A stretch of DNA of 20,376 bases from a virus (Duplodnaviria > Heunggongvirae > Uroviricota > Caudoviricetes), in IMG/VR virus record IMGVR_UViG_2877973648_000005, positions 1 to 20,376 of that record; one strand, given 5' to 3'. A program made the translations under genes and the position numbers. A model generated the notes under the pieces. That model was not told where the DNA came from. It saw nothing but the letters and a program-made list of their open reading frames with translations, and made no database searches. How positions within the stretch are numbered: position 1 is the first letter of the stretch; each line of letters starts with the position of its first letter. This document shows, in pieces, positions 1,738 to 18,958 of this stretch.

Positions 1738-1744
1738 ACTCATA

Positions 1745-2695: not shown

Positions 2696-3064
2696 GACCG
2701 GGACTCCCAATGCTTAAAATATCGGACAGTTCGGTGGGCACACAGAAACAAATTGGGTTTCAGACCATTAAACAGCCTGACTCAGCGCGACGGGAAAAAT
2801 TGAGGTCGCTGACAACCGCTAAGGCTATCAGCAAAAAGGGATAGCCTTAGGAGTTGATCCTGGATGACAGGATAGTGAGCCAGTATCTACTGGGTGTGTC
2901 CAAGGCGAATGTCCTCTTAGAGTGATCGTGCGCGCATGTTACGCCAGCAAAATTTTGCCGTCAACACGCAACAGAACACCACAGAACAATAGTTGAACTT
3001 CGCGCTTTTTGGTACTCGTCAAGGTCGCTAACAGGATAAAAAAATCCCACATCCAGGACCTATA

Positions 3065-3352
3065 ATGGCGCATCAGCTACTCATTGGTAAAGGAATGATC
3101 ACCTTGAATCTCAAACGGATTTTTCTCGCCCTCACCTTACTTCCCTTGTTTGCTGTTGCCGCTGATGATTGCGCACTCTCAGATCCGACGCTGACCGTAC
3201 AGGCGTATACCGTTAATCCTCAAACAGAGCGGGTGAAAATGTACTGGCAAAAAGCCAATGGCGAAGCGTGGGGAACGTTACATGCTCTGCTGGCGGATAT
3301 TAATAGTCAGGGTCAGGTGCAGATGGCGATGAACGGCGGCATCTATGATGAA
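3065..3352 (+). pseudogene. 5' fragment of a signal-peptide protein gene divergent from corA (possibly yigE), truncated by the IS1 junction
   Basis: ORF with a signal-peptide-like N-terminus (MITLNLKRIFLALTLLPLFAVAA) runs directly into the IS1 inverted repeat at 3353; its last 9 codons in the ORF track (GDAANLLI) are encoded by IS1. The yigE assignment is from remembered K-12 gene order only. Confidence 0.5.
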
Positions 3353-3407
3353 GGTGATGCTGCCAACTTACTGATTTAGTGTATGATGGTGTTTTTGAGG
3401 TGCTCCA

Positions 3408-3683
3408 GTGGCTTCTGTTTCTATCAGCTGTCCCTCCTGTTCAGCTACTGACGGGGTGGTGCGTAACGGCAAAAGCACCGCCGGACATCAGCGCTATCTC
3501 TGCTCTCACTGCCGTAAAACATGGCAACTGCAGTTCACTTACACCGCTTCTCAACCCGGTACGCACCAGAAAATCATTGATATGGCCATGAATGGCGTTG
3601 GATGCCGGGCAACAGCCCGCATTATGGGCGTTGGCCTCAACACGATTTTACGTCACTTAAAAAACTCAGGCCGCAGTCGGTAA
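3408..3683 (+). CDS. insA: IS1 InsA
   Basis: Identical 91-aa translation to the InsA at 1337-1612. Confidence 0.92.
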
Positions 3684-4105
3684 CCTCGCGCATACAGCCG
3701 GGCAGTGACGTCATCGTCTGCGCGGAAATGGACGAACAGTGGGGATACGTCGGGGCTAAATCGCGCCAGCGCTGGCTGTTTTACGCGTATGACAGTCTCC
3801 GGAAGACGGTTGTTGCGCACGTATTCGGTGAACGCACTATGGCGACGCTGGGGCGTCTTATGAGCCTGCTGTCACCCTTTGACGTGGTGATATGGATGAC
3901 GGATGGCTGGCCGCTGTATGAATCCCGCCTGAAGGGAAAGCTGCACGTAATCAGCAAGCGATATACGCAGCGAATTGAGCGGCATAACCTGAATCTGAGG
4001 CAGCACCTGGCACGGCTGGGACGGAAGTCGCTGTCGTTCTCAAAATCGGTGGAGCTGCATGACAAAGTCATCGGGCATTATCTGAACATAAAACACTATC
4101 AATAA
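3602..4105 (+). CDS. insB: IS1 InsB frame
   Basis: Identical 167-aa translation to the InsB at 915-1418. Confidence 0.88.
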
Positions 4106-4120
4106 GTTGGAGTCATTACC

Positions 4121-4325
4121 GTTTTTTGGCCCCTTCTATGGTGGCTATAATGTAATCAAACTGGATGATGAGTATAAGTATGCTCTTGTCAGTGGTCCGA
4201 ACAGAGAATACCTATGGATTCTGGCAAGGACCCCAACTATTCCAGATAAAGTAAAAGCAGACTATGTGCGAACCGCTCAAAAGTTGGGATTCAATGTCAA
4301 TGAATTATTATGGGTTAAACAATAA
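4121..4325 (+). pseudogene. 3' fragment of a lipocalin (Blc-like outer-membrane lipoprotein) gene, truncated at the IS1 junction
   Basis: FFGPFYGGYNVIKLDDEYKYALVSGPNREYLWILARTPTIPDKVK...LLWVKQ resembles the C-terminal third of E. coli Blc (FFGPFYGGYNVIALDREYRHALVCGPDRDYLWILSRTP...) but is clearly diverged; there is no start codon outside IS1. Confidence 0.7.
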
Positions 4326-4353
4326 AATCCCTACCCGAAATAATACTTATTAG

Positions 4354-4382
4354 AAAAAAACCAGCCTTTGGGGAGGCTGGCT
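4354..4382 (-). terminator. Rho-independent terminator downstream of Q (tR'-like)
   Basis: Stem CCAGCC / GGCTGG with an 8-nt loop; on the minus strand it is followed by seven T. Confidence 0.6.
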
Positions 4383-4480
4383 AAATCAGGAAACAAGCTG
4401 TTATATGATAATAACTACGTTGCGATTCCAACATTTAAAATGTTAGACTAATGACAATCAGACAGCAACTTTTCCTTTAA

Positions 4481-4873
4481 TTATTTCGAACAATCAGCAT
4501 CCATCTCCAATCGGAGAACCAACACCATCAGCATACCCTCCACTACGCCCTCAGCTTTCTGAAGCATCCTGCCAACCCAACAATCAGATCGCCCATGCTT
4601 ACGTGCAAGCGCCATAAAAGTCATGCCGCCGACATAATAGTCCACCAATAAATCATGCAAATCGCTGTTGTTCTTTTTCAGACGGGCCATGCACCCGCAA
4701 ATGATCATCGCGTCATCGTCACAACATTGTGGGCGAGATTTTACTTTTGAAGGAATTAATCCCTTAAAACCGGCGGCAATGGACGACCAGGTCACATCTT
4801 CATGATTATTAGCCGCCCACGCTCCCCAACGCTCAAGAACCATCTGAATATCACGCATCAACTTACTCCACAA
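4481..4873 (-). CDS. Late-gene antiterminator Q, short QuuD-like type
   Basis: Position (last gene of the nin region, upstream of a terminated short leader) and size/sequence resembling the DLP12 QuuD class of Q proteins; the native start may be the internal Met (MRDIQ...). Confidence 0.7.
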
Positions 4874-4943
4874 AACTCAGACCAGAACGCCAATTACAAG
4901 CAAAAATCAACAAAACAGTATTAGTTGATTGTTATCTCTGACT

Positions 4944-5084
4944 TCATACTCCTGCTCCTGTCAGTGTTTTGGCGTAATTCTTCAGTATTCGGTAATCGGT
5001 CAAAACAGAACCGGGGAAACGATATAAGCGCAGACGCCCCCAGCGGTGGCGAAGAAGTTCTGCCATATTAAACTCAAACATCAT
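4944..5084 (-). CDS. Small YlcG-like protein (46 aa)
   Basis: Sub-threshold [49 protein letters not shown] whose start overlaps the rusA stop, as in the DLP12 rusA-ylcG-quuD arrangement. Confidence 0.45.
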
Positions 5085-5443
5085 TCATTCCCCATTTCGG
5101 TGATGGTCAGTTCCAGCCTCCCACCTTTGGTAACAGGCATCTTCACAACGCGGTAATCAACGACCTGAGCATCATCCAGCCAGAAACCTGCTTTAGTGAG
5201 TGCGTCAAAAGCGGCTTTTTGCAGATTATCCAGGTCACGGCGACGGCGATCCGGCATGTGGCACTCAATGCGGATTTTCACAGGCATAGCCAGGCCGATA
5301 TCTAGCATTGCGTTTTTAATGATTCGGGCGACGTTATCGCGGTATGCCTGCCCCTCTGCGCTGATGTGCGTGCGTCCGCGATTATGGCGGTAATAGCGAT
5401 TATTGCTCGGAGGCCAGGGTAATGTGATGCTGTAGGTATTCAC
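5081..5443 (-). CDS. rusA: RusA Holliday-junction resolvase
   Basis: 120-aa translation matches E. coli/DLP12 RusA ([26 protein letters not shown]...). Confidence 0.92.
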
Positions 5444-5730
5444 GCCTTAATAACCCCCTCTTTCAGCCAGATAACCTGTGTTCTCGCCATACCTTCCAGC
5501 GCGCATTCTTTTGCATATGCAGCATCGACAAAATGTGTGCGGCGGTCGATTTCGTCGTGGCAGGCAGAACATGCAATGGTGGCAATCAGGTCTGGCGGTT
5601 TGATACCGGTACCGCACAATCCAGCCAGCCGGATATGTGCCAGTACAGACGTCTCAGAATTGCCATTACATACGCCAGGGATTCTTACCTGGCATTCCCG
5701 ACCACGCGCTGCTTTTCTCAAATCAGCCAT
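5440..5730 (-). CDS. ybcO: YbcO-like prophage nuclease (DUF1364)
   Basis: 96-aa translation from [24 protein letters not shown]... matches DLP12 YbcO; the ORF-track start at 5769 is an upstream extension. Confidence 0.85.
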
Positions 5731-5893
5731 GATTCCTCCTTGCTGCCAGTCGCAACCATTTTTTATCAACCAGGCTAGCGGTATATCCGAGCAGTGTTGG
5801 TATTTCGGATGGCTTCAGCTCAGGCTTACGCTTACGACGATTTGATACTCTGTAGATGTGTCCGTTCATGACACGAATAAGCGGTGTAGCCAT
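5723..5893 (-). CDS. ninE: NinE-like protein (56 aa)
   Basis: Sub-threshold [50 protein letters not shown]...; its start overlaps the ybcN stop (TAATG) and its stop overlaps the ybcO start. Confidence 0.7.
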   Translation of the reverse strand: MATPLIRVMNGHIYRVSNRRKRKPELKPSEIPTLLGYTASLVDKKWLRLAARRNHG

Positions 5894-6348
5894 TACGCCT
5901 CCTGCTTGTCGCGGAGCAGCTGGAACTCGCAGCTCTGCGGAATAGTCAGGTGGCAGCCAATATTCATCGCCCAGGCTTCAACCTTACACAGGAAGACATA
6001 CATCTCTCCGGTATCAAGATTGGAGGTATGACGTAATGACTGAATGGTGGTGATTTCACCGGTTACGACATCAACCAGTTCTTTGGTTTCATAACCGAGA
6101 TAAGTGTGTTTGAGAGCATCTTTTACCCAAGCTGGAGTGGCGAACGTTTTACCCCTGCTGATGAGGTATTCACTGATTTCGCTGTACCACATGTGGCTGA
6201 GTGCATTCTGGGAAAGACTGCGTCTCTCGCGCCACGGTTTAAGCACCATGCGAAAGCATTTGCCGTCCTCCAGATAAGGCTGGATCTGCCGACCGATAGC
6301 GGTGAAGTTACCGCGATGCAATTTGATACCATCTTGTGGGAGGTTCAC
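5893..6348 (-). CDS. ybcN: NinB/Orf-family recombination protein (YbcN-like, 151 aa)
   Basis: [17 protein letters not shown] motif comparable to lambda NinB RSLDQNRKLW...; size and position match DLP12 ybcN. Confidence 0.78.
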
Positions 6349-6554
6349 GCTTCACCTCCGCAGAGATCAAACGCTGGATGCAAAATATCGCAGGTGCATT
6401 TCTGCATCTGTGAATGGAGAAGAGAGGTTGGATTGTATGTGCGCATAAACGTCCCCGTTTAGCGCAGAAGTCACCGAAGTTGTTCAGGCTCCGATTACTT
6501 AATTATGGCAAGTTGATTATCGCAAATCAAAGGTTTTAATTGTGCTTTATTCTT

Positions 6555-6755
6555 TCAAGCGTTTCCTTCATACCAAAGCCTATAAAGTTTTTCTTCTTCG
6601 TTTGGGTTAATAGGCTCACCATGTTTTAATTTTTCAGTGTACAAAATTGTTGAACAAATCGCGGAAGTTAATCCAGTGATCGCCATCTGCCGCAGATCGG
6701 ATTTTTGTGTCCCCCTCAACAGACGATCTCCCATCCATGTAATAATTGTATCCAT
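6555..6755 (-). CDS. Hypothetical 66-aa protein
   Basis: ORF in AT-rich DNA with a plausible RBS (aagaagg); no recognisable family. Confidence 0.35.
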   Translation of the reverse strand: MDTIITWMGDRLLRGTQKSDLRQMAITGLTSAICSTILYTEKLKHGEPINPNEEEKLYRLWYEGNA

Positions 6756-7347
6756 GCTTCAGCCCTTCTTAGTAAATAGTGTGTAGGGCGACTGAAGGAC
6801 CGAGTTTATGCTTTTTCGCATTGCTTTCAGTTAGTAGACCGGTATAGCACCGGAAACAATCCTACGGCAAATTGGTTGTCTGACCTCTCGGTTTTTCGTG
6901 CATTAACCGATACCCACTACAGTCTCGGCGAAAGCTGCACACCCCCAAGGTGTACTGGTAGCACTCGGCACAGCCTAGCGCGCCACTTTCTTCTCACTAT
7001 CCAGTCTAATTTTATCCCCTAGTCAGACACTCAGATGTAGTGCTCAGCAGCGGCATGCGGGGGAATACAAAAACTCGGACAAAATTGGGCCCTCCTTTTT
7101 GAATCACTCGCGGGGATGTAGTTATTAATACATGGGAAAAGATCTGTTTTCAAATCCAACATTATATGGTTTCAATACCACGGGGTGGCTATGTGTTTCT
7201 CATTATTATTTACAATCTACTGTAATCGCTCCGAACGCAAATGCGTCAATACTCGAATCAACTGATCATCCTGCCACGACTGAAATCTCAAATAGGCCGT
7301 TTCTCAAGTAAGAGATTTTGAATGCATTATTGGCTACTGAAATAAAA

Positions 7348-7378
7348 AACCCAGCGCAAACTGGGTTCATATGAAATT
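7348..7378 (-). terminator. Rho-independent terminator after the secreted-protein gene
   Basis: CCCAG...CTGGG stem followed by TTTTTT on the minus strand, just downstream of the stop at 7385. Confidence 0.5.
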
Positions 7379-7384
7379 TTTTTG

Positions 7385-7879
7385 TCATTTCCAATTGCAA
7401 GACTGTGAAATTTTTTCCACAACCTTATCAATCTCAGACAAGTCAAACTCAACTACTTGCATAGTTGATCCATAAGGTTCAAACCCAAAAATAGCTTTTT
7501 TATGCTTAGCCAAGGTCTTTATAAATTGTATTGGTTGTGGAGCAAATGCAGAATCACCGCCTTCCCCACCTCCCCAAACACTCTTGACCGGCTTTCCGCC
7601 ATCTAACCGCACTGTAATTCTTGGGTTGTCCGAACCCATATAATCATTGAATGATAAATAGGCATCTGTTTTGTTATCACTACAACGCAACACCAGTGAA
7701 GTTGCACGATCAGTACCTGCTTTGTTATATGAATCTGGTGATAAATTAAGAGCCACAAAGTCAGTCTGGTCAGTCATTTTATTTATCTCAGACTTTGTTA
7801 TCCACGGCCCTAACTTCTCTACACCAGCATTTGCTGTAAACGAGGCACTTATAACAAAGGCTAAAATAAATTTTCTCAT
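7385..7879 (-). CDS. Hypothetical secreted protein (164 aa) with Sec signal peptide; moron in the ren/ninA position
   Basis: N-terminus MRKFILAFVISASFTANA is a signal peptide; strong RBS aaggaga; AT-rich codon usage distinct from flanking lambda genes; own terminator. Confidence 0.65.
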   Translation of the reverse strand: MRKFILAFVISASFTANAGVEKLGPWITKSEINKMTDQTDFVALNLSPDSYNKAGTDRATSLVLRCSDNKTDAYLSFNDYMGSDNPRITVRLDGGKPVKSVWGGGEGGDSAFAPQPIQFIKTLAKHKKAIFGFEPYGSTMQVVEFDLSEIDKVVEKISQSCNWK

Positions 7880-8025
7880 AACCCTATCTCCTTGGATTCA
7901 AAGAACTAAATATTATCAAGTCTCTTGCCACTAGAAAACCCACTTTATTTCCAAACTCTGATGGCATTCCTGAAAATCCGCTTCATACTCACTTGCCCCG
8001 CCCTATCATCCTGAGTAGCTAACCG

Positions 8026-8199
8026 TTAAACAAACGTTCGCCAGACCTTACCATCAATGACCAGGATTCCTGCCCGCGTCATTTTTGCCGCAGCCTTATT
8101 TATGCTGGTTAATGTCACACCTGTTGTCGCAGCAACGTCCGGCGCACAGAAGCTCTTGTGCGTCTCCAGATAATGAATAATTGCCTCTTTGCCCGTCAT
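8026..8199 (-). pseudogene. ren: Truncated ren (57 codons; first ~55 residues Ren-like)
   Basis: MTGKEAIIHYLETHKSFCAPDVAATTGVTLTSINKAAAKMTRAGILVIDGKVWRT matches the lambda Ren N-terminus, then diverges to a stop; the ATG overlaps the P stop (ATGA) as in lambda. Confidence 0.65.
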
Positions 8200-8897
8200 A
8201 CAGTTGCTCCTTTCAGTCCGAACTTCGCTTTGATTTCTGCGATCTTCGCCAGAGCCTGAGCCCGGTTAAGTGGTCTACCGCCCATGACAGGAAGTTGTTT
8301 TACTGGTTCAGGTATAGCCTCACCACGGTTAATTCGTGCGGTCATACAGGACAGTTCATCGGCAGCCTTGCGCCGTAATTCCGCGTCAGTCAACGCATTG
8401 GCCCGCATGTTCTGATACAGGTTGGTAACCAGCCAGTAGTGCGCGTTTGATTTCCACGGATAAGACTCTGCATCCGGATACAGCCCGCGCTTCCGGCAAT
8501 ACTCGTAAACCATATCAACCAGCTCGCTGGCGTTTGGCAGCCCGGCGGTAACGGATGCTTCTTCCCGGCACCAGGCGACAAACTGCCCGGGTGATGGCAG
8601 GAATGGTCGATTCTGCCGACGGGCTACGCGCATTCCAGCGTTAACCTGTTCCATTGTGGTGATCCCGTTTTCCCGAAAAGCCAGCACCCACTGGCGGCGG
8701 ATTTCGTTCAGTTCATTCTGGTCACGGTTAGCCAGGCTCGCCGGGAAAGTTGCCAGTAACTGGCTGAACACACCGTTGATGATCTGCGCTACCTGCTGTA
8801 CCTGCGGCTTTTCGTCGTACTGTTCCGGCATGTTGTTGGCGATCCGACGCATCTGCTCACGGTCAAAGTTAACCATCTGTGCGGCGATGTTTTTCAT
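8196..8897 (-). CDS. P: Replication protein P (DnaB helicase loader)
   Basis: 233-aa translation nearly identical to lambda P (MKNIAAQMVNFDREQMRRIANNMPEQYDEKPQVQQ...). Confidence 0.95.
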   Translation of the reverse strand: MKNIAAQMVNFDREQMRRIANNMPEQYDEKPQVQQVAQIINGVFSQLLATFPASLANRDQNELNEIRRQWVLAFRENGITTMEQVNAGMRVARRQNRPFLPSPGQFVAWCREEASVTAGLPNASELVDMVYEYCRKRGLYPDAESYPWKSNAHYWLVTNLYQNMRANALTDAELRRKAADELSCMTARINRGEAIPEPVKQLPVMGGRPLNRAQALAKIAEIKAKFGLKGATV

Positions 8898-9913
8898 AAA
8901 TCCACCCCGTAAATCCAGTCAGTGTTTGTCAGGTCGAGTTTTGGTTTGCTGGCTATCATGCCTGCCTGTTGCTTGTTACGGTTGATTTCGAGTTGGGTCC
9001 ACTTGTCGCGGAGTTTGGCCGGACTTAGCACGTTACCGGACCAGAAGTTGTCCTGGCATGCCCAGCGGAAAAGCACGCACATGTCGCGGTGGTTACGTCC
9101 GTCACGTTCACGCATCAGGCGGATATCGTTAGCCCACCCTGCAAAATTCGGTTTTCTGGCTGATGGTGCGATGGTCTTCACCATGTCAAACATCCACTCT
9201 GCGGCGGTCAGGTCTTCTGCTGTCCCCCACTTGCTGCCGCTCTGAATTGCAGCATCTGGTTTCACCACAGGAAGATCGTTTTCTGGTTGGTCAGAGGATT
9301 CGCCAGAATTCTCGGACGAAAAAGGTTTTATATTGTCTTTTGTTAGTTTGTCTTTTGTGTTTACCTGATTCGGGTAAACGCCTTTACCTGATTTGGGTAA
9401 ACTTTTCTTACCTGATTCAGGTAAATTTACCTCTTTCAGGTAAACTTTATTTTTCTTACCTGATTCGGGTAATGTTGACCATTCACTGACCACATTATTA
9501 ATACCGATATTCCGCCCGCTCTGAATCAAAATCCCACGCTTTACCAGAACACTTTTTGCAGCAGAACACTTGTGCGGTAATATCCCGGTCAATCCGGACA
9601 GTTGCTCGTTGCTCACCCAATCCAGTTTTTTATTAAAGCCATATGTTTTGCGCATGACAGCCAGGAAGACCAGAAGCTGGTGCTGTGTTAATCCGGCCAG
9701 CATCACAGCTTCCAGCAACTCATTTGCAATGCGCGTATAACCATCATCGAGATCTGCCACGCGCGGCTCCTTTTGTGCCGCATCCGGCACTGGAAAATTG
9801 AATATCTCAGCAGTGTTTGCCATAATTCCTCCCGCAATGAGTGTGTTACGATTTGCACCTGAAAGTCGGTTCTGTTCCAGCAGACCGGCTTTCGCCATTT
9901 CTGAACCTGTCAT
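8894..9913 (-). CDS. O: Replication initiator O-like protein (iteron-binding), contains ori
   Basis: Located immediately upstream of and overlapping P; contains internal iteron array plus AT-rich tract, the lambda O/ori architecture. The N-terminal domain differs from lambda O. Confidence 0.85.
   Translation of the reverse strand: MTGSEMAKAGLLEQNRLSGANRNTLIAGGIMANTAEIFNFPVPDAAQKEPRVADLDDGYTRIANELLEAVMLAGLTQHQLLVFLAVMRKTYGFNKKLDWVSNEQLSGLTGILPHKCSAAKSVLVKRGILIQSGRNIGINNVVSEWSTLPESGKKNKVYLKEVNLPESGKKSLPKSGKGVYPNQVNTKDKLTKDNIKPFSSENSGESSDQPENDLPVVKPDAAIQSGSKWGTAEDLTAAEWMFDMVKTIAPSARKPNFAGWANDIRLMRERDGRNHRDMCVLFRWACQDNFWSGNVLSPAKLRDKWTQLEINRNKQQAGMIASKPKLDLTNTDWIYGVDL
9361..9474. repeat. Replication origin iterons: five ~19-bp direct repeats TTACCTGATTCGGGTAAAC, each an internal palindrome
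   Basis: Repeats at 9361-9379, 9384-9402, 9408-9426, 9427-9445 and 9456-9474 with 0-10 bp spacing, inside the O reading frame. Confidence 0.8.
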
Positions 9914-10449
9914 ATCGCCCCCAGCATGGTAGTAACCATCGCCATCAATGGACCAGCCAGATCTGGGTCCACACGAAACATCGATACAATACCTTCACTA
10001 ATTTCCTTCAGTTTCTGGTGGCGTGGTGCGTTAAGAATGACAGCCTGTTTTGCCTCACTGAGTTCCTTTTCCATTTCAGCCAACCTGGCCATGAAGCTAT
10101 CCTGCTCAACCAGGTAACCGCGATATTCCAGCGGTAGTACCGCCAGAATTGCCGGGGTCAGTTCACGCACGTTATTTCGGTATTTTTCAGAATCGAATTT
10201 GTTATCGAGGAAGCGGAACAGCTTCTGGCGTGCACGGCTGACATCATCAGGGAAATCGATGGTGCCGCCGCCCTGCTCCCGATACTCATTCACAATGAGT
10301 GTGGCAACGACATCCTGATTATCTACAGCCGACCAGGCGCGGACGGCATCACGGATTTTTTCGTGGCCTGGCACCTGTTTTGTTTGAGAACGATTTATCA
10401 CCGCAGTCGGGCTAAATCCGCTAGTCTGTTGGTATGGAAGTGGTTGCAT
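9910..10449 (-). CDS. YdaT-like protein in the cII position (179 aa)
   Basis: Sits between cro and O with the stop overlapping the O start; the Cro-like + larger-protein pair resembles Rac ydaS-ydaT. Assignment is by synteny and general resemblance, not a firm match. Confidence 0.5.
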   Translation of the reverse strand: MQPLPYQQTSGFSPTAVINRSQTKQVPGHEKIRDAVRAWSAVDNQDVVATLIVNEYREQGGGTIDFPDDVSRARQKLFRFLDNKFDSEKYRNNVRELTPAILAVLPLEYRGYLVEQDSFMARLAEMEKELSEAKQAVILNAPRHQKLKEISEGIVSMFRVDPDLAGPLMAMVTTMLGAI

Positions 10450-10518
10450 AATTGACTCCTTTAGTTTGAATTGACTGTTAAGTTGATTGCTTATTGTTAA
10501 AGAGCGTGAAATGGAAAT

Positions 10519-10749
10519 TTAAGCTGCGTTCTTTTCGGTGTGTGGAAACAACTTCGGAAGATCCGGGCGAATCTGGTATGCCTTCACTACTCCACCAGTA
10601 GCCGTAACAATGCTGCCGACATGTTCAGGGGATACCTTTGCTTTGTTGTGAAGCCACTTATAGACGGCCTGCTGTGAAACTTCGCAAGCAGCGCCCAGTT
10701 TCTTTTGTGAACCAACGATATTGATCGCTGTTTTGATAGCTGGGTTCAT
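10519..10749 (-). CDS. cro: Cro-like repressor (YdaS/Cro HTH family, 76 aa)
   Basis: Small HTH protein divergent from cI across an operator-rich 104-bp spacer; GGAGG RBS 5 nt upstream. Confidence 0.7.
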   Translation of the reverse strand: MNPAIKTAINIVGSQKKLGAACEVSQQAVYKWLHNKAKVSPEHVGSIVTATGGVVKAYQIRPDLPKLFPHTEKNAA

Positions 10750-10853
10750 AACAACCTCCGTGGTTAATTTGAATCAAGATTAAAACTATGGTTGTTTTTA
10801 GTCAACAACCATTTTCGTTTGATGGAATAAAACCTTGGTTGTACATTTGGACT
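10750..10853. promoter_or_regulatory. OR/pR/pRM divergent control region
   Basis: Intergenic between divergent cro and cI; contains the 17-bp palindrome AAAACTATGGTTGTTTT (10782-10798), related to a site in the OL region. Confidence 0.6.
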
Positions 10854-11543
10854 ATGAAAACAACACTCTCAGAAAGACTTAAAGAAGCCAGATTAGCGCG
10901 AGGCCTTACACAAAAGGCGCTTGGGGATTTGGTCGGGGTTAGCCAGGCTGCTATTCAGAAAATCGAAACAGGGAAAGCTAATCAAACAACTAAAATCGTG
11001 GAGATCGCGAACGCTTTGGGTGTGCGCGCAGAATGGTTATCTTCTGGCGTTGGAAATATGTCAGACAGTACAGTGCAACCAATACAATCAACTGTCAGCC
11101 ATTCCAAATACTTCAAGATTGACGTTCTTGATATAGAAGTCAGTGCTGGGCCGGGAGTCATCAACCGTGAGTTTGTAGAAGTTCTACGCTCGGTTGAGTA
11201 CTCGTTTGACGATGCTCGTCACATGTTCGATGGTAGGAAGGCGGAAAATATCCGCATCATTAACGTGCGTGGTGACAGCATGTCAGGAACGATCGAACCA
11301 GGTGATCTGCTGTTCGTTGATATCACAGTTAAATCTTTCGACGGTGATGGTATCTATGCGTTTCTGTACGACGACACAGCCCATGTAAAGCGCCTGCAAA
11401 TGATGAAGGATAAGCTGCTGGTCATCTCTGATAACAAAAGCTACTCACCGTGGGACCCGATCGAGAAAGACGAGATGAACCGGGTGTTCATCTTCGGTAA
11501 GGTTATTGGGAGCATGCCGCAGACATATAGGAAGCATGGGTAG
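10854..11543 (+). CDS. cI: CI prophage repressor (N-terminal HTH, C-terminal S24 LexA-like autopeptidase)
   Basis: HTH LTQKALGDLVGVSQAAIQKIETGK; the C-terminal domain has the GDSM serine motif and a downstream Lys (HVKRLQ). Start placed at MKTTLSERL (apparently leaderless, as for lambda pRM), because the ORF-track start at 10788 would lie within the operator region. Confidence 0.85.
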   Translation: MKTTLSERLKEARLARGLTQKALGDLVGVSQAAIQKIETGKANQTTKIVEIANALGVRAEWLSSGVGNMSDSTVQPIQSTVSHSKYFKIDVLDIEVSAGPGVINREFVEVLRSVEYSFDDARHMFDGRKAENIRIINVRGDSMSGTIEPGDLLFVDITVKSFDGDGIYAFLYDDTAHVKRLQMMKDKLLVISDNKSYSPWDPIEKDEMNRVFIFGKVIGSMPQTYRKHG

Positions 11544-11664
11544 TACCAATTAAAAATTATCAACTGGGCATTGTGCTCATTCAGTAAAGAACTAATTCCT
11601 ATCTTTGCTCTAGGTAGTAATATTAAGCCACCGCAATAATATCTTTACCTAACGGCGTAAGAAT

Positions 11665-11690
11665 CCCGGTCACCGTGCCGGGTTTTCTTT
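11665..11690 (+). terminator. Rho-independent terminator after cI
   Basis: CCCGGT / GCCGGG stem followed by TTTTCTTTT. Confidence 0.55.
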
Positions 11691-11799
11691 TGCCCTCCCC
11701 TCATCACACACACCGTTAAAAAAACCACCATAACCTCGCTTCAGTTATCGCTATGCGATTCAAGTCACAAAATAAATCCATCCTAAATACAACCAGTTA

Positions 11800-11870
11800 T
11801 ATCTAAAACAACCAATAAAACAACTTTTGTTGTTGACGATAAAACAACTATAGTTTTAAATAAGTTCATC
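11800..11870. promoter_or_regulatory. OL/pL-like region
   Basis: AT-rich segment with TTGACG (-35-like) and the palindromes CAACTTTTGTTG and AAAACAACTATAGTTTT (11841-11857), the latter differing by one base from the reverse complement of the OR site. Confidence 0.5.
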
Positions 11871-12054
11871 GCAACAACACAACGATACGGCAACTACCTG
11901 ATTCACCGTTGCGATGACCGCTTAGATCCGCAGTTTGAATTTCAGCAGGCTTCGGGGAGTGCGAGGGGTGAAACGGACGCGTGAACGTCGGTGTGACCAG
12001 CTGAAATTAACTCAACATTTCATACCTCAGTCGCTTCAACGAGGCGGCTTAGTT

Positions 12055-12345
12055 ATGACAACCGGCGGCCATCCACCGCCTGAATATGCGCAGAAGTCTC
12101 TATATGTTCAGCAGCCCAGCTTACGGGCAGGAGTTTTTATGGTTCATCAACATTACGGAACACAGACCGTTAATCGCGGCGCGGTCATGCCAGGAATGCT
12201 GGTCAAACACAAAGATGGTACCTGGACTGCATCAGCTAATTTACGCGGACGGCTTTATCTGCATCGCGGCATCGAGCGCACTTATACCAGTGATTTGCTC
12301 GTGGAAGTTTTTCTCGACGGACGCGGTAACGGCCTGAATCACTAA
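12055..12345 (+). CDS. Hypothetical early-left protein (N/kil/cIII position)
   Basis: ORF immediately upstream of gam with a GAGG RBS; the same frame extends upstream through an Arg-rich stretch (KRTRERR) to GTG/TTG starts. Confidence 0.45.
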   Translation: MTTGGHPPPEYAQKSLYVQQPSLRAGVFMVHQHYGTQTVNRGAVMPGMLVKHKDGTWTASANLRGRLYLHRGIERTYTSDLLVEVFLDGRGNGLNH

Positions 12346-12421
12346 CCCCCCTTTCCTGTTTTCCTAATCAGCCTGGCATTTCGCGGGCGATATTTTCACA
12401 GCCATTTTCAGGAGTTCAGCC

Positions 12422-12718
12422 ATGAACGCTTATTACATTCAGGATCGTCTTGAGGCTCAGAGCTGGGCGCGTCACTACCAGCAGCTCGCCCGTGAAGAGA
12501 AAGAGGCAGAACTGGCAGACGACATGGAAAAAAGCCTGCCCCAGCACCTGTTTGAATCGCTATGCATCGATCATTTGCAACGCCACGGGGCCAGCAAAAA
12601 AGCCATTACCCGTGCGTTTGATGACGATGTTGAGTTTCAGGAGCGCATGGCAGAACACATCCGGTACATGGTTGAAACCATTGCTCACCACCAGGTTGAT
12701 ATTGATTCAGAGGTATAA
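12422..12718 (+). CDS. gam: Gam, RecBCD inhibitor
   Basis: Translation [37 protein letters not shown]... matches lambda Gam (short form). Confidence 0.95.
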
Positions 12719-12723
12719 AACGG

Positions 12724-13509
12724 ATGAGTACAGCACTCGCAACGCTGGCTGGGAAGCTGGCTGAACGTGTCGGCATGGATTCTGTCGACCCACAGGAACT
12801 GATCACCACTCTTCGCCAGACGGCATTTAAAGGTGATGCCAGCGATGCGCAGTTCATCGCATTGTTGATCGTCGCCAACCAGTACGGCCTTAATCCGTGG
12901 ACGAAAGAAATTTACGCCTTCCCTGACAAGCAGAACGGCATCGTTCCGGTGGTGGGCGTTGATGGCTGGTCCCGTATCATCAATGAAAACCAGCAGTTTG
13001 ATGGCATGGACTTTGAGCAGGACAATGAATCATGTACATGCCGGATTTACCGCAAGGACCGTAATCATCCGATCTGCGTTACCGAGTGGATGGATGAATG
13101 CCGCCGCGAACCATTCAAAACCCGCGAAGGCAGAGAAATCACGGGGCCGTGGCAGTCGCATCCCAAACGGATGTTACGGCATAAAGCCATGATTCAGTGT
13201 GCCCGTCTCGCCTTCGGATTTGCTGGTATCTATGACAAGGATGAAGCCGAGCGCATTGTCGAAAATACCGCATACACTGCAGAACGTCAGCCGGAACGCG
13301 ACATCACTCCGGTTAACGATGAAACCATGCAGGAGATTAACACTCTGCTGATCGCCCTGGATAAAACATGGGATGACGACTTATTGCCGCTCTGTTCCCA
13401 GATATTTCGCCGCGACATTCGCGCATCGTCAGAACTGACACAGGCCGAAGCAGTGAAAGCTCTTGGATTCCTGAAACAGAAAGCCACTGAGCAGAAGGTG
13501 GCAGCATGA
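12724..13509 (+). CDS. bet: Bet (Red-beta) single-strand annealing protein
   Basis: 261-aa translation essentially identical to lambda Bet. Confidence 0.97.
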
Positions 13510-14186
13510 CACCGGACATTATCCTGCAGCGTACCGGGATCGACGTGAGAGCTGTCGAACAGGGGGATGATGCATGGCACAAATTACGGCTCGGCGTCAT
13601 CACCGCTTCAGAAGTTCACAACGTGATAGCAAAGCCCCGCTCAGGAAAGAAGTGGCCTGACATGAAAATGTCCTACTTCCACACCCTGCTGGCTGAGGTT
13701 TGCACCGGTGTGGCTCCGGAAGTTAATGCTAAGGCGCTGGCCTGGGGAAAACAGTACGAGAACGACGCCAGAACCCTGTTTGAATTCACTTCCGGCGTGA
13801 ATATTACTGAATCCCCGATCATCTATCGCGACGAAAATATGCGCACCGCCTGCTCTCCCGATGGTTTATGCAGTGACGGCAACGGCCTTGAACTGAAATG
13901 CCCGTTTACCTCCCGGGATTTCATGAAATTCCGGCTCGGTGGTTTCGAGGCAATAAAATCGGCTTACATGGCCCAGGTGCAGTACAGCATGTGGGTGACG
14001 CGAAAAGATGCCTGGTACTTTGCCAACTATGACCCGCGCATGAAGCGTGAAGGCCTGCATTATGTCGTGATTGAGCGGAATGAAAAGTACATGGCGAGTT
14101 TTGACGAGATGGTGCCGGAGTTCATCGAAAAAATGGACGAGGCACTGGCTGAAATTGGTTTTGTATTTGGGGAGCAATGGCGATGA
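13506..14186 (+). CDS. exo: Exo (Red-alpha) 5'-3' exonuclease
   Basis: 226-aa translation essentially identical to lambda Exo; start overlaps the bet stop. Confidence 0.97.
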
Positions 14187-14365
14187 CGCATCCTCACGAT
14201 AATATCCGGGTAGGCGCGATCACTTTCGTCTACTCCGTTACAAAGCGAGGCTGGGTATTTCCCGGCCTTTCTGTTATCCAAAATCCACTGAAAGCCCAGC
14301 GGCTGGCTGAGGAGATAAATAATAAACGAGGGGCTGTATGCACAAAGCATCTCCCGTTGAGTTAA
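14177..14365 (+). CDS. lambda orf60a-like protein
   Basis: [31 protein letters not shown]... matches lambda orf60a. Confidence 0.75.
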
Positions 14366-14529
14366 GAACGAGTATCGAGATGGCACATAGCCTCGCTCAA
14401 ATTGGAGTCAGGTTTGTGCCAATACCAGTAGAAACAGACGAAGAATTTCACACGTTAGCCGCATCCCTTTCACAAAAGCTGGAAATGATGGTGGCGAAAG
14501 CAGAAGCAGATGAGAGAGACCAGGTATGA
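14338..14529 (+). CDS. lambda orf63-like protein
   Basis: [37 protein letters not shown]... matches lambda orf63. Confidence 0.75.
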   Translation: MHKASPVELRTSIEMAHSLAQIGVRFVPIPVETDEEFHTLAASLSQKLEMMVAKAEADERDQV

Positions 14530-14605
14530 CAACCACTGAATGCATTTTTCTGGCAGCGGGCTTCATATTCTGTGTGCTTATGCTTGCCGACATGGGACTT
14601 GTTCA

Positions 14606-14821
14606 ATGACACCTCAGCAGGAAAACGCCCTTCGCAGCATTGCCCGTCAGGCTAATTCTGAAATCAAAAAAGCCAGACAGCAGTTTCCGGATAAAAACGT
14701 CGATGACATTTGCCGTAGCGTACTGAAGAAGCACCGCGAAACGGTAACGCTGATGGGATTCACACCGACTCATTTAAGCCTGGCAATCGGCATGTTAAAC
14801 GGCGTCTTTAAGGAACGATGA
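14606..14821 (+). CDS. lambda orf61-like protein
   Basis: MTPQQENALRSIARQANSEIKKARQQFPDKNVDDICRS... matches lambda orf61; the ORF-track start at 14540 is an upstream extension. Confidence 0.7.
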   Translation: MTPQQENALRSIARQANSEIKKARQQFPDKNVDDICRSVLKKHRETVTLMGFTPTHLSLAIGMLNGVFKER

Positions 14822-14919
14822 ACATGAAAAGCAAAATCATCAGGGAGCTACAGGCTCCTTTTTTATTATTCGCATTCACCCTCAAGCGTATTAACCAACA
14901 ATTCAGGGATTAATGGAAG

Positions 14920-15141
14920 ATGGCAGACATCATTGATTCAGCATCAGAAATTGAAGAATTACAGCGCAACACAGCAATAAAAATGCGCCGCCTGAACCAC
15001 CAGGCTATATCTGCCACTCATTGTTGTGAGTGTGGCGATCCGATAGATGAACGAAGACGCCTGGTCGTTCAGGGTTGTCGGACTTGTGCAAGTTGCCAGG
15101 AAGATCTGGAGCTTATCAGTAAACAGAGAGGTTCGAAGTGA
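14920..15141 (+). CDS. TraR/DksA-family C4 zinc-finger protein (lambda orf73-like)
   Basis: CCECGDPIDERRRLVVQGCRTCASCQ four-Cys motif. Confidence 0.7.
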   Translation: MADIIDSASEIEELQRNTAIKMRRLNHQAISATHCCECGDPIDERRRLVVQGCRTCASCQEDLELISKQRGSK

Positions 15142-15449
15142 GCGAAATTAACTCTCAGGCACTGCGTGAAGCGGCAGAGCAGGCAATGCATGACGACTGG
15201 GGATTTGACGCAGACCTTTTCCATGAATTGGTAACACCATCGATTGTGCTGGAACTGCTGGAACTGCTGGATGAGCGGGAAAGAAACCAGCAATACATCA
15301 AACGCCGCGACCAGGAGAACGAGGAAATTGCGCTAACGGTAGGAAAGCTGCGCGTTGAGCTGGAAGCAGCAAAATCAAAACTCAACGAGCAGCGTGAATA
15401 TTACGAAGGTGTTATCTCGGATGGAAGTAAGCGTATTGCTGAACTGTAG
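15138..15449 (+). pseudogene. ea22: Truncated ea22 (N-terminal 103 codons only)
   Basis: MSEINSQALREAAEQAMHDDWGFDADLFHELVTPSIVLELL... matches the start of lambda Ea22 (182 aa in lambda); it ends where the AT-rich island begins. Confidence 0.65.
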
Positions 15450-15699
15450 GCCTAGGTTGAGTGTACAAGATTTGCATACGTAAGAGCAAAAGACAAGGGA
15501 GAATTGATCAGAGTTATTACCTGCCAACCAACGGGATATTACGCTTACGTACCATGTAACTAGGAATCCTTGAAGTGGCAGCCTAACTGTGGATACACTG
15601 AAATGGCGATTTGGTAACATGTTTCGCACAAGGCTGTTACTACGCTTAGAGATAATCAGTCATGATTAAATGCTTTGTAAAAAGTAAAAGGAAATTACA

Positions 15700-16314
15700 A
15701 TGAAAAAATCAACACTAATTTTAGGGCTTACGTTAATTGTCTCATCTCAAATACCATCGGCAATGGCAAAAAATGAATCAAAACTTTGGGTTGTTGTTGA
15801 TCGAACGGAAAGACATACCTGCCCTTCAAGTAAATGTGGAGTGGCTGGGAAACTATTTTTCAGGGAAGGCGTAGATTTTCTAGAAAAAAAAGGTGAATGG
15901 GTTCGTATAACTGAGCCATATTCAGCCTCATGTGTGGGAGGGGAAAGCGAATATATTAAAGAAGGTAATAAATCCTGCACAAGAAAAAACGGAATCGTTA
16001 ATGGCAAGTTTTCAGAATGGGTTAAACTTAGTGATCTTAGCAGTGAAAGGCCATCAGATCCTGCTGAAAATGCGAGCAGAAATGATACCTTAATCAAAGG
16101 ATCTGATGACTACCGTATATACAAAAAAGAGTTTTCTTCGGCAGCTAGGAAGTTAATAAGTGAAGGTGTCTGCACGGAGAGCGATTTTAAGGAAGTTGGA
16201 GGGTGGATGGCATCAAGCAATAAGGGTGAAAACATCTATTTCACATATTGCGGAGGAATGACGTTGTCGAACAGAATATATCTAGACGTTAAAAGTGGAA
16301 AGACTTTTAGATAA
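15700..16314 (+). CDS. Hypothetical secreted Cys-rich protein (204 aa), cargo gene
   Basis: Signal peptide MKKSTLILGLTLIVSSQIPSAMA; AAGGA RBS; six Cys in the mature part; very AT-rich relative to the prophage backbone. Confidence 0.65.
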   Translation: MKKSTLILGLTLIVSSQIPSAMAKNESKLWVVVDRTERHTCPSSKCGVAGKLFFREGVDFLEKKGEWVRITEPYSASCVGGESEYIKEGNKSCTRKNGIVNGKFSEWVKLSDLSSERPSDPAENASRNDTLIKGSDDYRIYKKEFSSAARKLISEGVCTESDFKEVGGWMASSNKGENIYFTYCGGMTLSNRIYLDVKSGKTFR

Positions 16315-16607
16315 TATGATATTACCAATGACAGCATTAATTTAATGCCTCCATAGAATTATCTCTAGGAAGTAAGTATAAGAAAAGTCCGCACAATGAG
16401 CTGCTGCGGGCTTTGTGTTATTCGCCATATTTTATGAAGCAAATACGACACTATAGATAATTAAGCGTTACTGGTTGTCGATTCCTCACTCATTCCTGCT
16501 GATGGCTGTCTTCTTGTATGTGTCATTGAAGGGTAATATCGCGTAAAAAGATACCGGAAGTATCCGCGCCGCCATGATTGTCTTTCTCCTGATGCAGGAA
16601 AAGCAGA

Positions 16608-16946
16608 ATGACTAAATCAGCAGCAGAGCGCAAAGCCGATCAGAGAGCCAAGCAAGCATCATCCGGTATGCGTAAGCTGGAGCTTGTACTTGATGCTCAG
16701 GAAATTGAAATGCTGGAGCGTAACTGAGCCACGCGCCGCTTCAGGCGTGCGCCTTACGAGTTTGGTGAGTACATAGCGTTACTGAGCCGCCAGGATGATG
16801 CACGTGTGCGCTGGCGTATAAAATCGATTAGCAGAAAACGTTGCCGTAAGTGCGGCGAGAAAGTTCCTGTTAATTCATGCCCGTGTAATGGTGACTCACA
16901 ATACTGGGTGACCAAAGGCTGGCACGAAACAAAATTAATGATATAA
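16608..16946 (+). pseudogene. Zinc-ribbon small protein gene interrupted by an in-frame TGA (39 codons, TGA at 16725-16727, then 72 more sense codons)
   Basis: AGGAAAAG RBS before the ATG at 16608; the same frame continues after the TGA to a TAA at 16944-16946 and encodes CRKCGEKVPVNSCPCNG. Neither half alone reaches 60 aa. Confidence 0.4.
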
Positions 16947-16974
16947 ATCTCTGTGACATGTCACGGAGGCGGCA

Positions 16975-17403
16975 ATGAAATTAGACCAGCAATATCTAAA
17001 AGATCTACTTATCGCATTCGAAAAAACTTATGGCCCTGACACGATGCTTAGTGAACTAGAGGATAATGGCTTTAATAGATATGACCAAAATTTTATTTTC
17101 CATATGCGATTATTATGTGACTACGAATTAATAGTTAGGGTTGATGGAAAACCTGGGTTCGGTCATATAATGTCCAACGAGTTAGGGGAAGGTGTTGAAT
17201 ATAGTTGGATCGAAGTACCACTGAGGTTGACAGCAAGAGGGCATGATTTTATTGCTGACTTACGTCAAAAGGAGGTCTGGCAAGCTATAAAAACAAACTT
17301 TAAGGATGAGGGGATTAGTACTCTTATGAGTGTTTCAAAATCACTAGCAAAAGGCTTTGCAAGAAAAAAAATAAAAGATATTACAGGAATAGATATTGAA
17401 TAA
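16975..17403 (+). CDS. Hypothetical cytoplasmic protein (142 aa), cargo gene
   Basis: Strong GGAGG RBS; AT-rich; followed by a terminator; no recognisable family from sequence alone. Confidence 0.65.
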   Translation: MKLDQQYLKDLLIAFEKTYGPDTMLSELEDNGFNRYDQNFIFHMRLLCDYELIVRVDGKPGFGHIMSNELGEGVEYSWIEVPLRLTARGHDFIADLRQKEVWQAIKTNFKDEGISTLMSVSKSLAKGFARKKIKDITGIDIE

Positions 17404-17448
17404 TTCTTAGCATAAAGCAACTACTGCCTTTGGTGAAAATTATATCTG

Positions 17449-17471
17449 AACTCGCTACGGCGAGTTTTTTT
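17449..17471 (+). terminator. Rho-independent terminator after the 142-aa gene
   Basis: CTCGC-TACG-GCGAG hairpin followed by TTTTTTT. Confidence 0.6.
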
Positions 17472-17511
17472 ATGGAGATGATAAATGCACTTCCGAGTCA
17501 CAGGTGAATAG

Positions 17512-17652
17512 AATGGAGAACCATTCAACAGAGTTATCGAAGCCGAGAACATCAGCGACTGCTATGACCACTGGATGCTGTGGGCGCAGATAGCACATGC
17601 AGACGTAACCAATATTCGAATTGAAGAACTGAAAGAACACCAAGCCGCCTGA
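17512..17652 (+). pseudogene. Start-less 3' remnant of an Ea8.5-like gene
   Basis: 46 sense codons (...ISDCYDHWMLWAQIAHADVTNIRIEELKEHQAA*) bounded upstream by TAG with no initiation codon; lies where lambda ea8.5 sits relative to xis. The Ea8.5 assignment is from position and memory only. Confidence 0.4.
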
Positions 17653-17665
17653 TGGCGGTTTTTTC
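17644..17665 (+). terminator. Rho-independent terminator upstream of xis
   Basis: CCGCC-TGAT-GGCGG hairpin followed by TTTTTT. Confidence 0.5.
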
Positions 17666-17691
17666 TTGCGTGTAATTGCGGAGACTTTGCG

Positions 17692-17910
17692 ATGTACTTG
17701 ACACTTCAAGAGTGGAACGCTCGCCAGCGACGCCCAAGAAGCCTTGAAACAGTTCGTCGATGGGTGCGCGAATGCAGGATATTCCCTCCTCCGGTTAAGG
17801 ATGGAAGAGAATATCTGTTCCACGAATCAGCGGTAAAGGTTGACTTAAATCGACCAGTAACAGGTAGCCTTTTGAAGAGGATCAGAAATGGGAAGAAGGC
17901 GAAGTCATGA
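17692..17910 (+). CDS. xis: Xis excisionase
   Basis: MYLTLQEWNARQRRPRSLETVRRWVRECRIFPPPVKDGREYLFHESAVK... matches lambda Xis; overlaps the int start. Confidence 0.95.
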   Translation: MYLTLQEWNARQRRPRSLETVRRWVRECRIFPPPVKDGREYLFHESAVKVDLNRPVTGSLLKRIRNGKKAKS

Positions 17911-18958
17911 GCGCCGGGATTTACCCCCTAACCTTTATATAAGAAACAATGGATATTACTGCTACAGGGACCCAAGGACGGGTAAAGAGTTTGGATTAGG
18001 CCGAGACAGGCGAATCGCAATCACTGAAGCTATACAGGCCAACATTGAGTTATTTTCAGGACACAAACACAAGCCTCTGACAGCGAGAATCAACAGTGAT
18101 AATTCCGTTACGTTACATTCATGGCTTGATCGCTACGAAAAAATCCTGGCCAGCAGAGGAATCAAGCAGAAGACACTCATAAATTACATGAGCAAAATTA
18201 AAGCAATAAGGAGGGGTCTGCCTGATGCTCCACTTGAAGACATCACCACAAAAGAAATTGCGGCAATGCTCAATGGATACATAGACGAGGGCAAGGCGGC
18301 GTCAGCCAAGTTAATCAGATCAACACTGAGCGATGCATTCCGAGAGGCAATAGCTGAAGGCCATATAACAACAAACCCTGTCGCTGCCACTCGCGCAGCA
18401 AAATCAGAGGTAAGGAGATCAAGACTTACGGCTGACGAATACCTGAAAATTTATCAAGCAGCAGAATCATCACCATGTTGGCTCAGACTTGCAATGGAAC
18501 TGGCTGTTGTTACCGGGCAACGAGTTGGTGATTTATGCGAAATGAAGTGGTCTGATATCGTAGATGGATATCTTTATGTCGAGCAAAGCAAAACAGGCGT
18601 AAAAATTGCCATCCCAACAGCATTGCATGTTGATGCTCTCGGAATATCAATGAAGGAAACACTTGATAAATGCAAAGAGATTCTTGGCGGAGAAACCATA
18701 ATTGCATCTACTCGTCGCGAACCGCTTTCATCCGGCACAGTATCAAGGTATTTTATGCGCGCACGAAAAGCATCAGGTCTTTCCTTCGAAGGGGATCCGC
18801 CTACCTTTCACGAGTTGCGCAGTTTGTCTGCAAGACTCTATGAGAAGCAGATAAGCGATAAGTTTGCTCAACATCTTCTCGGGCATAAGTCGGACACCAT
18901 GGCATCACAGTATCGTGATGACAGAGGCAGGGAGTGGGACAAAATTGAAATCAAATAA
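17888..18958 (+). CDS. int: Int, lambda-type tyrosine integrase (356 aa)
   Basis: Translation essentially identical to lambda Int (MGRRRSHERRDLPPNLYIRNNGYYCYRDPRTGKEFGLGRDRR...). Intact, so this is not a DE3-type int disruption. Confidence 0.97.
   Translation: MGRRRSHERRDLPPNLYIRNNGYYCYRDPRTGKEFGLGRDRRIAITEAIQANIELFSGHKHKPLTARINSDNSVTLHSWLDRYEKILASRGIKQKTLINYMSKIKAIRRGLPDAPLEDITTKEIAAMLNGYIDEGKAASAKLIRSTLSDAFREAIAEGHITTNPVAATRAAKSEVRRSRLTADEYLKIYQAAESSPCWLRLAMELAVVTGQRVGDLCEMKWSDIVDGYLYVEQSKTGVKIAIPTALHVDALGISMKETLDKCKEILGGETIIASTRREPLSSGTVSRYFMRARKASGLSFEGDPPTFHELRSLSARLYEKQISDKFAQHLLGHKSDTMASQYRDDRGREWDKIEIK

Follow-up and report, generated by a model that had tools for sequence, protein, structure and literature searches.

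The operators of phage 434 are 14 bp long and follow the pattern ACAA-N6-TTGT, position 5 of each half-site being G or T. In the prophages CP-933P and Rac, YdaS is the analogue of Cro and YdaT is the analogue of CII (PMC8630535, PMC9986795, PMC11879457). CP-933P carries operators at both OR and OL, with four equally spaced repeats reported, and leaderless translation of paaR2 was demonstrated experimentally (PMC8630535). Here, we analyzed the immunity region of a lambda-like prophage contained in a 20,376-nucleotide stretch of viral DNA (IMG/VR record IMGVR_UViG_2877973648_000005), referred to below as the window. We propose that this region is very probably the lysis/lysogeny switch of a lambdoid prophage, in which the wiring of lambda is combined with DNA-recognition parts of the phage 434 class, and that the predicted site of its cI repressor is a 14-bp, 434-like dyad repeated at OR and OL.

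A previous sequence-only reading had described the region as a non-lambda immunity cassette set in a lambda backbone. DNA comparison of the window with lambda agreed with this description. The segments at 7955-9360 (ren, P, and the 3' part of O), 12339-15446 (gam, bet, exo, and the following genes), and 17439-19046 (xis, int, and att) were 92%, 97.4%, and 98.6% identical to lambda, respectively, whereas positions 9361-12338 had no lambda match. Since this unmatched segment is flanked by DNA so close to lambda, the mosaic description is correct. The three protein assignments made in that reading, namely, a helix-turn-helix (HTH) plus S24 repressor, a YdaS-type Cro, and a YdaT-type protein in the cII slot, were all recovered by Pfam (Table 1). 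The recognition helix of cI, SQAAIQKIE (residues 30 to 38), lies in a 434-like HTH, and residues 5 to 68 matched best, among solved structures, the 434 repressor 1PER (4.5e-9) and then 434 Cro (2.7e-7). The S24 domain carries the self-cleavage set, with Ala98-Gly99, Ser142 in GDSM (from residue 140), and Lys179 in VKRL (from residue 178). The cro gene is divergent from cI across a control region of 104 bp and is preceded by a GGAGG Shine-Dalgarno sequence; the nearest solved structure of its product is the Xylella prophage Cro, 3BD1. YdaT_toxin was the sole Pfam family matched by the protein in the cII slot, which does not belong to the lambda CII family and matched the structure of CP-933P YdaT (8BT1) only weakly (E value, 0.0019). 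The ydaS- and ydaT-family genes thus stand in tandem downstream of PR, as in a YdaS/YdaT module, and are followed by lambda-type O and P.

Table 1. Features of the immunity region, with positions in the window (promoters and operators are predicted)
Feature	Position	Strand	Description
ydaT-family gene in cII position	9910-10449	-	179 aa; Pfam YdaT_toxin (PF06254), 8.5e-30; PGAP annotation; directly upstream of O
Immunity-specificity patch 1	10451-10986	.	cro, OR, and cI codons 1-44; no blastn alignment to phage 4A7
cro analogue, YdaS family	10519-10749	-	76 aa; Pfam YdaS_toxin (PF15943), 4.1e-17; weaker P22_Cro, 8e-5
Candidate fourth operator, OR0	10751-10764	.	ACAACCTCCGTGGT; 9/10 specified positions; overlaps the ribosome-binding site of cro as well as the region predicted to be transcribed early from PR
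PR	10777-10805	-	-35 TTGACT (10800-10805), 17-bp spacer, -10 TAATCT (10777-10782); OR1 in spacer
OR1	10782-10795	.	AAAACTATGGTTGT; strict match inside the 17-mer at 10782-10798, between PR -35 and -10
OR2	10805-10818	.	ACAACCATTTTCGT; weak, one consensus half and one weak half; abuts -35 of PR and of PRM
PRM	10819-10847	+	-35 TTGATG (10819-10824), 17-bp spacer, -10 TACATT (10842-10847); OR3 in spacer
OR3	10829-10842	.	AAAACCTTGGTTGT; strict match, between PRM -35 and -10
cI repressor	10854-11543	+	229 aa; Pfam HTH_3, 5.4e-13, and Peptidase_S24, 1.2e-18; start as in PGAP
Intrinsic-terminator-like hairpin and T run	11665-11692	+	CCCGGTCACCGTGCCGGG then TTTTCTTTTG; separates cI from PL
Immunity-specificity patch 2	about 11776-11868	.	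OL/PL; 4A7 alignment near-identical on both sides, breaks down only here
OL2	11820-11833	.	ACAACTTTTGTTGT; perfect dyad, strict match, 1-bp overlap with PL -35
PL	11833-11862	+	-35 TTGACG (11833-11838); -10 TAAATA (11857-11862, 18-bp spacer) or TTAAAT (17-bp spacer); OL1 in spacer
OL1	11844-11857	.	ACAACTATAGTTTT; strict match inside the 17-mer at 11841-11857, between PL -35 and -10

The earlier reading had also proposed a 17-bp palindrome, common to both control regions, as the repressor binding site. We found the repeated sequence at both places, as AAAACTATGGTTGTTTT at 10782-10798 on the minus strand (reverse complement, AAAACAACCATAGTTTT) and as AAAACAACTATAGTTTT at 11841-11857 on the plus strand. 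When up to 3 mismatches were allowed, AAAACAACYATAGTTTT was matched 3 times in the window, where 0.12 matches were expected, and none of 100 shuffled sequences reached 3. The repeat is thus real, but it is an imperfect palindrome with arms of only 5 bp (AAAAC/GTTTT). Within it lies a shorter dyad, A[A/C]AAC-N4-GTT[G/T]T, which occurs in its strict form exactly four times in the 20,376 bp, each time in OR or OL (starting at 10782, 10829, 11820, and 11844). With up to 1 mismatch, the dyad had 10 matches in the window against 3.2 expected, a count reached by none of 100 shuffles. A search for further operator copies, which the earlier reading had suggested, added OR3, OL2, and a weak OR2 to the two sites lying in the 17-mers. 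We conclude from these sequence comparisons that a predicted operator common to OR and OL does exist, as that reading held, but that the conserved unit likely to be recognized by cI is the 14-bp, phage-434-like dyad, the 17-mer covering only OR1 and OL1.

We then compared 35 loci from other species that encode cI relatives. In Kosakonia, Providencia, Morganella, Photorhabdus, and Xenorhabdus, cI is only 46 to 55% identical to that of the window, yet the 17-mer or a near copy lies at -72 or -73 from the ATG, matching the window, and a second copy is found about 0.9 to 1.1 kb downstream where the flank is long enough. A strict dyad was present within 140 bp upstream of the repressor gene in 31 of the 34 loci with the helix QAAIQKIE, nearly always at -25 and -72; the equivalent of OR1 was at -72 in 19 related loci and that of OR3 at -25 or -26 in 31. 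All 81 strict sites in 124 kb fell at recurring offsets (about -100, -72, and -25, with one at -61) or downstream of the gene, where the dyads form pairs 24 bp apart; OL1 equivalents amounted to 18 unique copies. Altogether, the relatives contained 74 unique conserved sites, every one of which fits the 14-bp dyad.

These counts bear on whether AAAAC-N7-GTTTT, at 17 bp, could itself be the recognition unit, in which case the true sites would be only OR1 and OL1 (plus 11817-11833). The whole 17-mer is indeed common to OR and OL and is intact in several relatives, for example, at OL of Providencia and Xenorhabdus, and lambda operators are 17 bp long. Yet just 35 of the 74 conserved sites fit the 17-bp form, even with 1 mismatch allowed. 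Moreover, the OR3 and OL2 sites of relatives are perfect ACAAC-N4-GTTGT dyads whose flanks do not match the longer form, OR1 is inverted in Brenneria and Symbiopectobacterium with loss of the flanking A/T run, and the nearest solved homologue, the 434 repressor, has 14-bp sites. We consider the 17-bp unit decidedly unlikely and rejected it in favor of the 14-bp dyad on the count of 35 out of 74.

The 14-bp sites are placed as in lambda. Measured from the cI ATG, the operator centers are at -65.5, -42.5, and -18.5, compared to -66, -42, and -19 in lambda, an agreement within 0.5 bp. Related dyads lie over PR and PRM, and a second set lies at PL, the promoter hexamers being predicted. At the PR hexamer positions, relatives show TTGAYT-N17-TATTAT. 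A near-identical PL promoter/operator block recurs in relatives and ahead of a Mor-family gene in Pectobacterium, as does, in relatives, the arrangement xACAAC-N4-GTTGT-TGAC formed by OL2 and the -35 hexamer of PL. At least five predicted operator sites would be arranged with lambda geometry. The sequence may also hold a fourth operator at OR, OR0: the bases found at its offset in most relatives score 9 to 10 out of 10, and those of Providencia, Morganella, Xenorhabdus, and a Klebsiella species score 10 out of 10. The center of OR0 is 31 bp from OR1, and the CTCC in its middle is complementary to the Shine-Dalgarno sequence of cro. Placed over the ribosome-binding site of cro, such a conserved operator might provide a further layer of repression that lambda lacks.

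Relatives with another recognition helix allowed us to ask which parts of the region vary together. In a Raoultella locus (L005) and in phage 4A7, the C-terminal domain of cI is 88 to 90% identical to that of the window, but the helix is different (AQPTIWR). Neither has a strict dyad; a different 14-bp dyad, ATACGCAAGCGTAT, is found at -26 instead, with ATAGCAATGCGTAT at -76 (4A7, L002 2443-2506; L005 1419-1482), so that the operator geometry is kept. In the OL patch of these relatives (about 4845-4900 in 4A7), related copies were read by eye. The window and 4A7 are 90 to 97% identical through ydaT, O, the cI C-terminal domain, the terminator, and the PL leader, and only two patches diverge (Table 1); identity on the two sides of patch 1 is 97% (8800-10450) and 90% (10987-11588). 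The helices of cI and Cro change in step, SQAAIQK occurring with SQQAVYK and AQPTIWR with AQPTVWR, which defines two immunity groups, and the Cro helix SQQAVYKWL is retained in every locus that shares the operator. In Pectobacterium, the cI homologue stands beside a Mor-family gene; tblastn found no cro homologue at these loci, and there is no OR1 site at -72, but the -25 site and a downstream site in a PL-like promoter are retained. The dyad thus tracks the repressor and not Cro.

The covariation of dyad and helix also argues against a reading in which the shared sequence is a duplicated promoter architecture, PR and PL being paralogous promoters, and not a protein site. The similarity of PR and PL does extend past the 17-mer to GTTGTTGAC...TTTTAA, including the -35 hexamer. 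However, the same dyad is found at OR3 over the unrelated PRM promoter, it changes with the repressor helix in 4A7 while the promoter geometry stays, and it keeps fixed offsets across genera although the adjoining intergenic bases have diverged. We regard promoter duplication as an extremely unlikely explanation and retain the repressor-site interpretation.

Several observations weigh against our assignment of the region as a 434-class lambdoid switch. The comparison loci were retrieved by peptide patterns, one of which was QAAIQKIE, and many of them are related by descent; the set is thus enriched for that helix, and the counts given above do not represent independent events. Only one half-site of OR2 is good; in most relatives OR2 scores 8 out of 10 at offset -49 or -50, and a best-of-8 background score of at least 8 occurs in ∼2% of stretches. 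At OL, we found no convincing OL3: no dyad was present 23 to 24 bp upstream of OL2, only lone ACAAC half-sites at 11789-11793 and 11808-11812; relatives likewise carry lone half-sites at varying distances (about 22, 31, and 42 bp). The -10 hexamer of predicted PR, TAATCT, is weak, and a generic promoter scan of 9800-12500 reported none of PR, PL, and PRM, so these promoters were assigned by hand and by comparison with relatives. We identified no YdaT site or PRE-like promoter between cro and ydaT, and in the searchable literature on this repressor we found no binding, transcript, or immunity experiment. Finally, this copy sits in a defective prophage devoid of late genes, so that there may be no lytic cycle left for the switch to control and only the remaining early genes to regulate. 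The promoter scan had a sole hit in 9800-12500, a minus-strand TTGCGA-16-TATAGT at 11847-11874, which points back toward the 3' end of cI and uses the center of OL1 as its -10.

The repressor would bind as a dimer to the 14-bp dyads. OR1 and OR2 cover PR, which is predicted to drive cro, ydaT, O, and P, and OR2 occupies the position from which lambda cI activates PRM. Since OR3 covers the spacer and the -10 of PRM, its occupation at a high repressor level would shut off cI. The two OL sites, 24 bp apart, cover PL, the presumed driver of kil, gam, bet, exo, xis, and int, and the cI transcript would end before PL at the terminator-like hairpin. Recognition helices start alike in the YdaS-type Cro (VSQQA) and in cI (VSQAA), and Cro is predicted to bind the sites of cI and to favor the lytic state. 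Upon RecA stimulation, cI would be inactivated by self-cleavage at Ala98-Gly99. The YdaT-family protein in the cII slot is probably the establishment regulator.

The sequence-only reading had suggested that cI is leaderless because the operator left no room for a ribosome-binding site before the ATG. This reason does not hold, as the 17-mer lies 56 nt upstream of the ATG, but the proposal itself remains probable on other grounds. The -10-like hexamer of PRM, TACATT, abuts OR3 and lies 6 nt before the ATG at 10854, as in lambda PRM (TAGATT-N6-ATG), and each of the 27 distinct upstream sequences of relatives has a TAnnnT hexamer 6 or 7 nt ahead of the cI ATG. By eye, we saw no Shine-Dalgarno sequence at a workable distance before the cI ATG. 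Transcription from PRM would probably start at the A of ATG 10854. The cI gene is annotated from ATG 10788 (251 aa) in the GenBank record of phage PhiR34_1 (PV340559), and from 10854 by PGAP. A leadered cI, either starting at 10788 or translated mainly from a longer transcript, can draw on this annotated open frame, and a cII/YdaT-dependent establishment transcript, if present, would have a leader, as from lambda PRE. However, ATG 10788 is within OR1 and has no Shine-Dalgarno sequence, the spacing between the -10 and the ATG is constant at 6 to 7 nt, like that of lambda PRM, and most relatives have an in-frame stop 3 to 30 nt upstream of the conserved MKTTL start, which argues against the 251-aa form. 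We consider a leadered cI unlikely, and the start at 10788 is probably misannotated.

Compared with phage 434, whose repressor is the closest solved homologue of the HTH of this cI, the window shares 14-bp operators with ACAA...TTGT ends, several sites at both OR and OL, and the likeness of the helix starts of repressor and Cro. In alignment with the 434 repressor, the residues matching Gln17 and Gln28 are kept, but Ala, Ala, and Lys stand in the places of Gln29, Ser30, and Gln33, so that the set of base-contacting residues (Gln28, Gln29, Ser30, and Gln33) is not the same. Unlike in 434, the half-site has C at position 5 and tolerates A at position 2, the Cro is of the YdaS/P22-Cro type and is not a paralogue of the repressor N-terminal domain, and the cII slot holds YdaT. 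Together, the changed contact residues, the C at operator position 5, the YdaS-type Cro, and the YdaT protein predict an immunity specificity related to but different from that of 434, the structural part of this comparison being read from alignment. With Gln29 changed to Ala, Gln33 changed to Lys, and C at operator position 5, this repressor would be a naturally occurring variant of the 434 recognition code on which protein-DNA specificity could be studied.

With lambda, the region shares the divergent cI and cro, three OR sites, the PRM -10 hexamer 6 nt before the ATG, as for the leaderless cI mRNA of lambda, PL and OL beyond cI, a self-cleaving S24 repressor, and flanking P, Red, and int genes that are 92 to 99% identical. 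It differs in having operators of 14 bp and not 17 bp, unrelated in sequence, with only two clear OL sites found, and in lacking rexAB, an N gene downstream of PL, and a cII or cIII homologue.

The earlier reading had called for a comparison with Rac and other heteroimmune lambdoid phages. This comparison recovered the YdaS/YdaT tandem and the two-patch divergence from 4A7, but the repressor and operator proved unlike those of CP-933P. Like the CP-933P PaaR2-YdaS-YdaT and Rac RacR-YdaS-YdaT modules, the window has a divergently transcribed repressor gene and repeated operators at both OR and OL, and the four-repeat array reported for CP-933P resembles the series OR0 to OR3. In contrast to PaaR2, which is about 15 kDa including its His tag (PMC8630535), the repressor of the window is a full-length, SOS-cleavable HTH plus S24 protein and not of the short RacR/PaaR2 type, and no toxin-antitoxin genes follow it. 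The operator is unrelated to the consensus reported for CP-933P, GTTTAGTAA, and the YdaT protein is only distantly related (E value, 0.002 to 8BT1).

The box defined for CP-933P YdaT is TTGATT-N6-AATCAA. Between 10450 and 10520, the best match to this box had 3 mismatches (10483-10500), which does not qualify as a YdaT box. The cro-ydaT interval contains only two AATTGACT direct repeats and shows no conservation in the YdaT-carrying relatives L014 and 4A7. The sole perfect box in the window, TTGATTATCGCAAATCAA, lies at 6513-6530 in the cargo/nin region, beside a ybcN module; we estimated about 0.001 chance sites per window, and the same box occurs at the same relative place in a different prophage, that of strain 4/1-1 (L003 2369-2386).

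The dyad also occurs outside phage early regions. The Pectobacterium loci, which are chromosomal and which we presume to be SOS circuits of the RdgA/RdgB type, a name that also appears in a GenBank label on phage phiEt88, have an identical recognition helix, VSQAAIQKIE, and a dyad at -25 from the repressor ATG. The promoter of the downstream gene, TTGACA-N5-ACAACTATAGTTTTAAAT, has nearly the same sequence as PL/OL1 in the window (L024 2620-2655; also L015-L027). This circuit differs in that the downstream gene encodes a Mor-family activator (2737-3087 in L024, P. carotovorum) and does not belong to the phage early genes. It is possible, though doubtful, that the helix (V/I)SQAAIQKIE and the dyad ACAAC-N4-GTTGT form one portable specificity module, shared by lambdoid prophages of many Enterobacterales and by RdgA/RdgB-type chromosomal SOS circuits. 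If so, a resident prophage repressor and a host-domesticated one could each regulate the promoters of the other, which could lead to cross-immunity to phages or to prophage control of bacteriocin and pectin-lyase genes.

The cassette is widespread. Positions 10450-11900 were matched at a coverage of at least 80% in 1,048 of 5,426 complete E. coli genomes (about 19%), and the cassette is present in the deposited phages PhiR34_1, IdasGreatGrand, Turner, and PhiR26_1, in which the genes are already labeled cI, Cro, and cII. The arrangement is therefore less novel than the sequence-only reading had implied, being common in E. coli and having published precedents for both the YdaS/YdaT analogy and a leaderless repressor (PMC8630535, PMC9986795). 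Because each component has a precedent, and because the cassette is so widespread and carries annotation in phage records, the region is an ordinary switch of the lambda type, very common, and no new kind of system. In the searchable literature on this operator, on RdgA operators, and on the matching phages, we found no description of the binding site, and the predicted operator sequence of this repressor is the only new content. It provides a testable operator definition and a two-patch immunity map for one of the commonest E. coli lambdoid immunity types, which should help to predict superinfection immunity and SOS inducibility from sequence alone.

Regarding antitermination, the stretch from PL to the kil-like gene at 12139-12345, where PGAP annotates nothing, has no annotated N gene. 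A boxA-like sequence, CGCTCTTTAACAA, was noted at 10494-10506 on the minus strand, after the cro stop codon; by eye, no boxB hairpin was seen either there or in the PL leader (11863-12138). Folding of the PL leader (11864-12140) for a put-like RNA gave a nonsignificant z score of -1.1, and an Rfam scan of the whole window at gathering thresholds returned nothing, which indicates the lack of any known nut, put, or small RNA family. A 60-bp stretch of the PL leader resembles early-region DNA of phi80.

The prophage lies entirely within the window, at 564-19046, in the lambda attachment site between ybhB (1-477) and ybhC (19093-20376). In E. coli 1218KP, the chromosome matches the window with 100% identity, at the same ybhB/ybhC site, and the window was matched over at least 80% of its length by only 7 of the 5,426 complete genomes. 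The prophage lacks the genes for lysis, head, and tail and those of the b region; their place is taken by two inverted copies of IS1A (915-1612 and 3408-4105), directly adjoining Q (4481-4858), with chromosomal-type corA, ysgD, and one truncated gene between the two copies. In a cargo segment at 6349-8199, between P and the nin genes, ren is a frameshifted pseudogene (7931-8199), positions 7385-7879 encode a TagO/VasI-like protein associated with type VI secretion, and an open reading frame of 66 aa (6555-6755) was assigned to no family.

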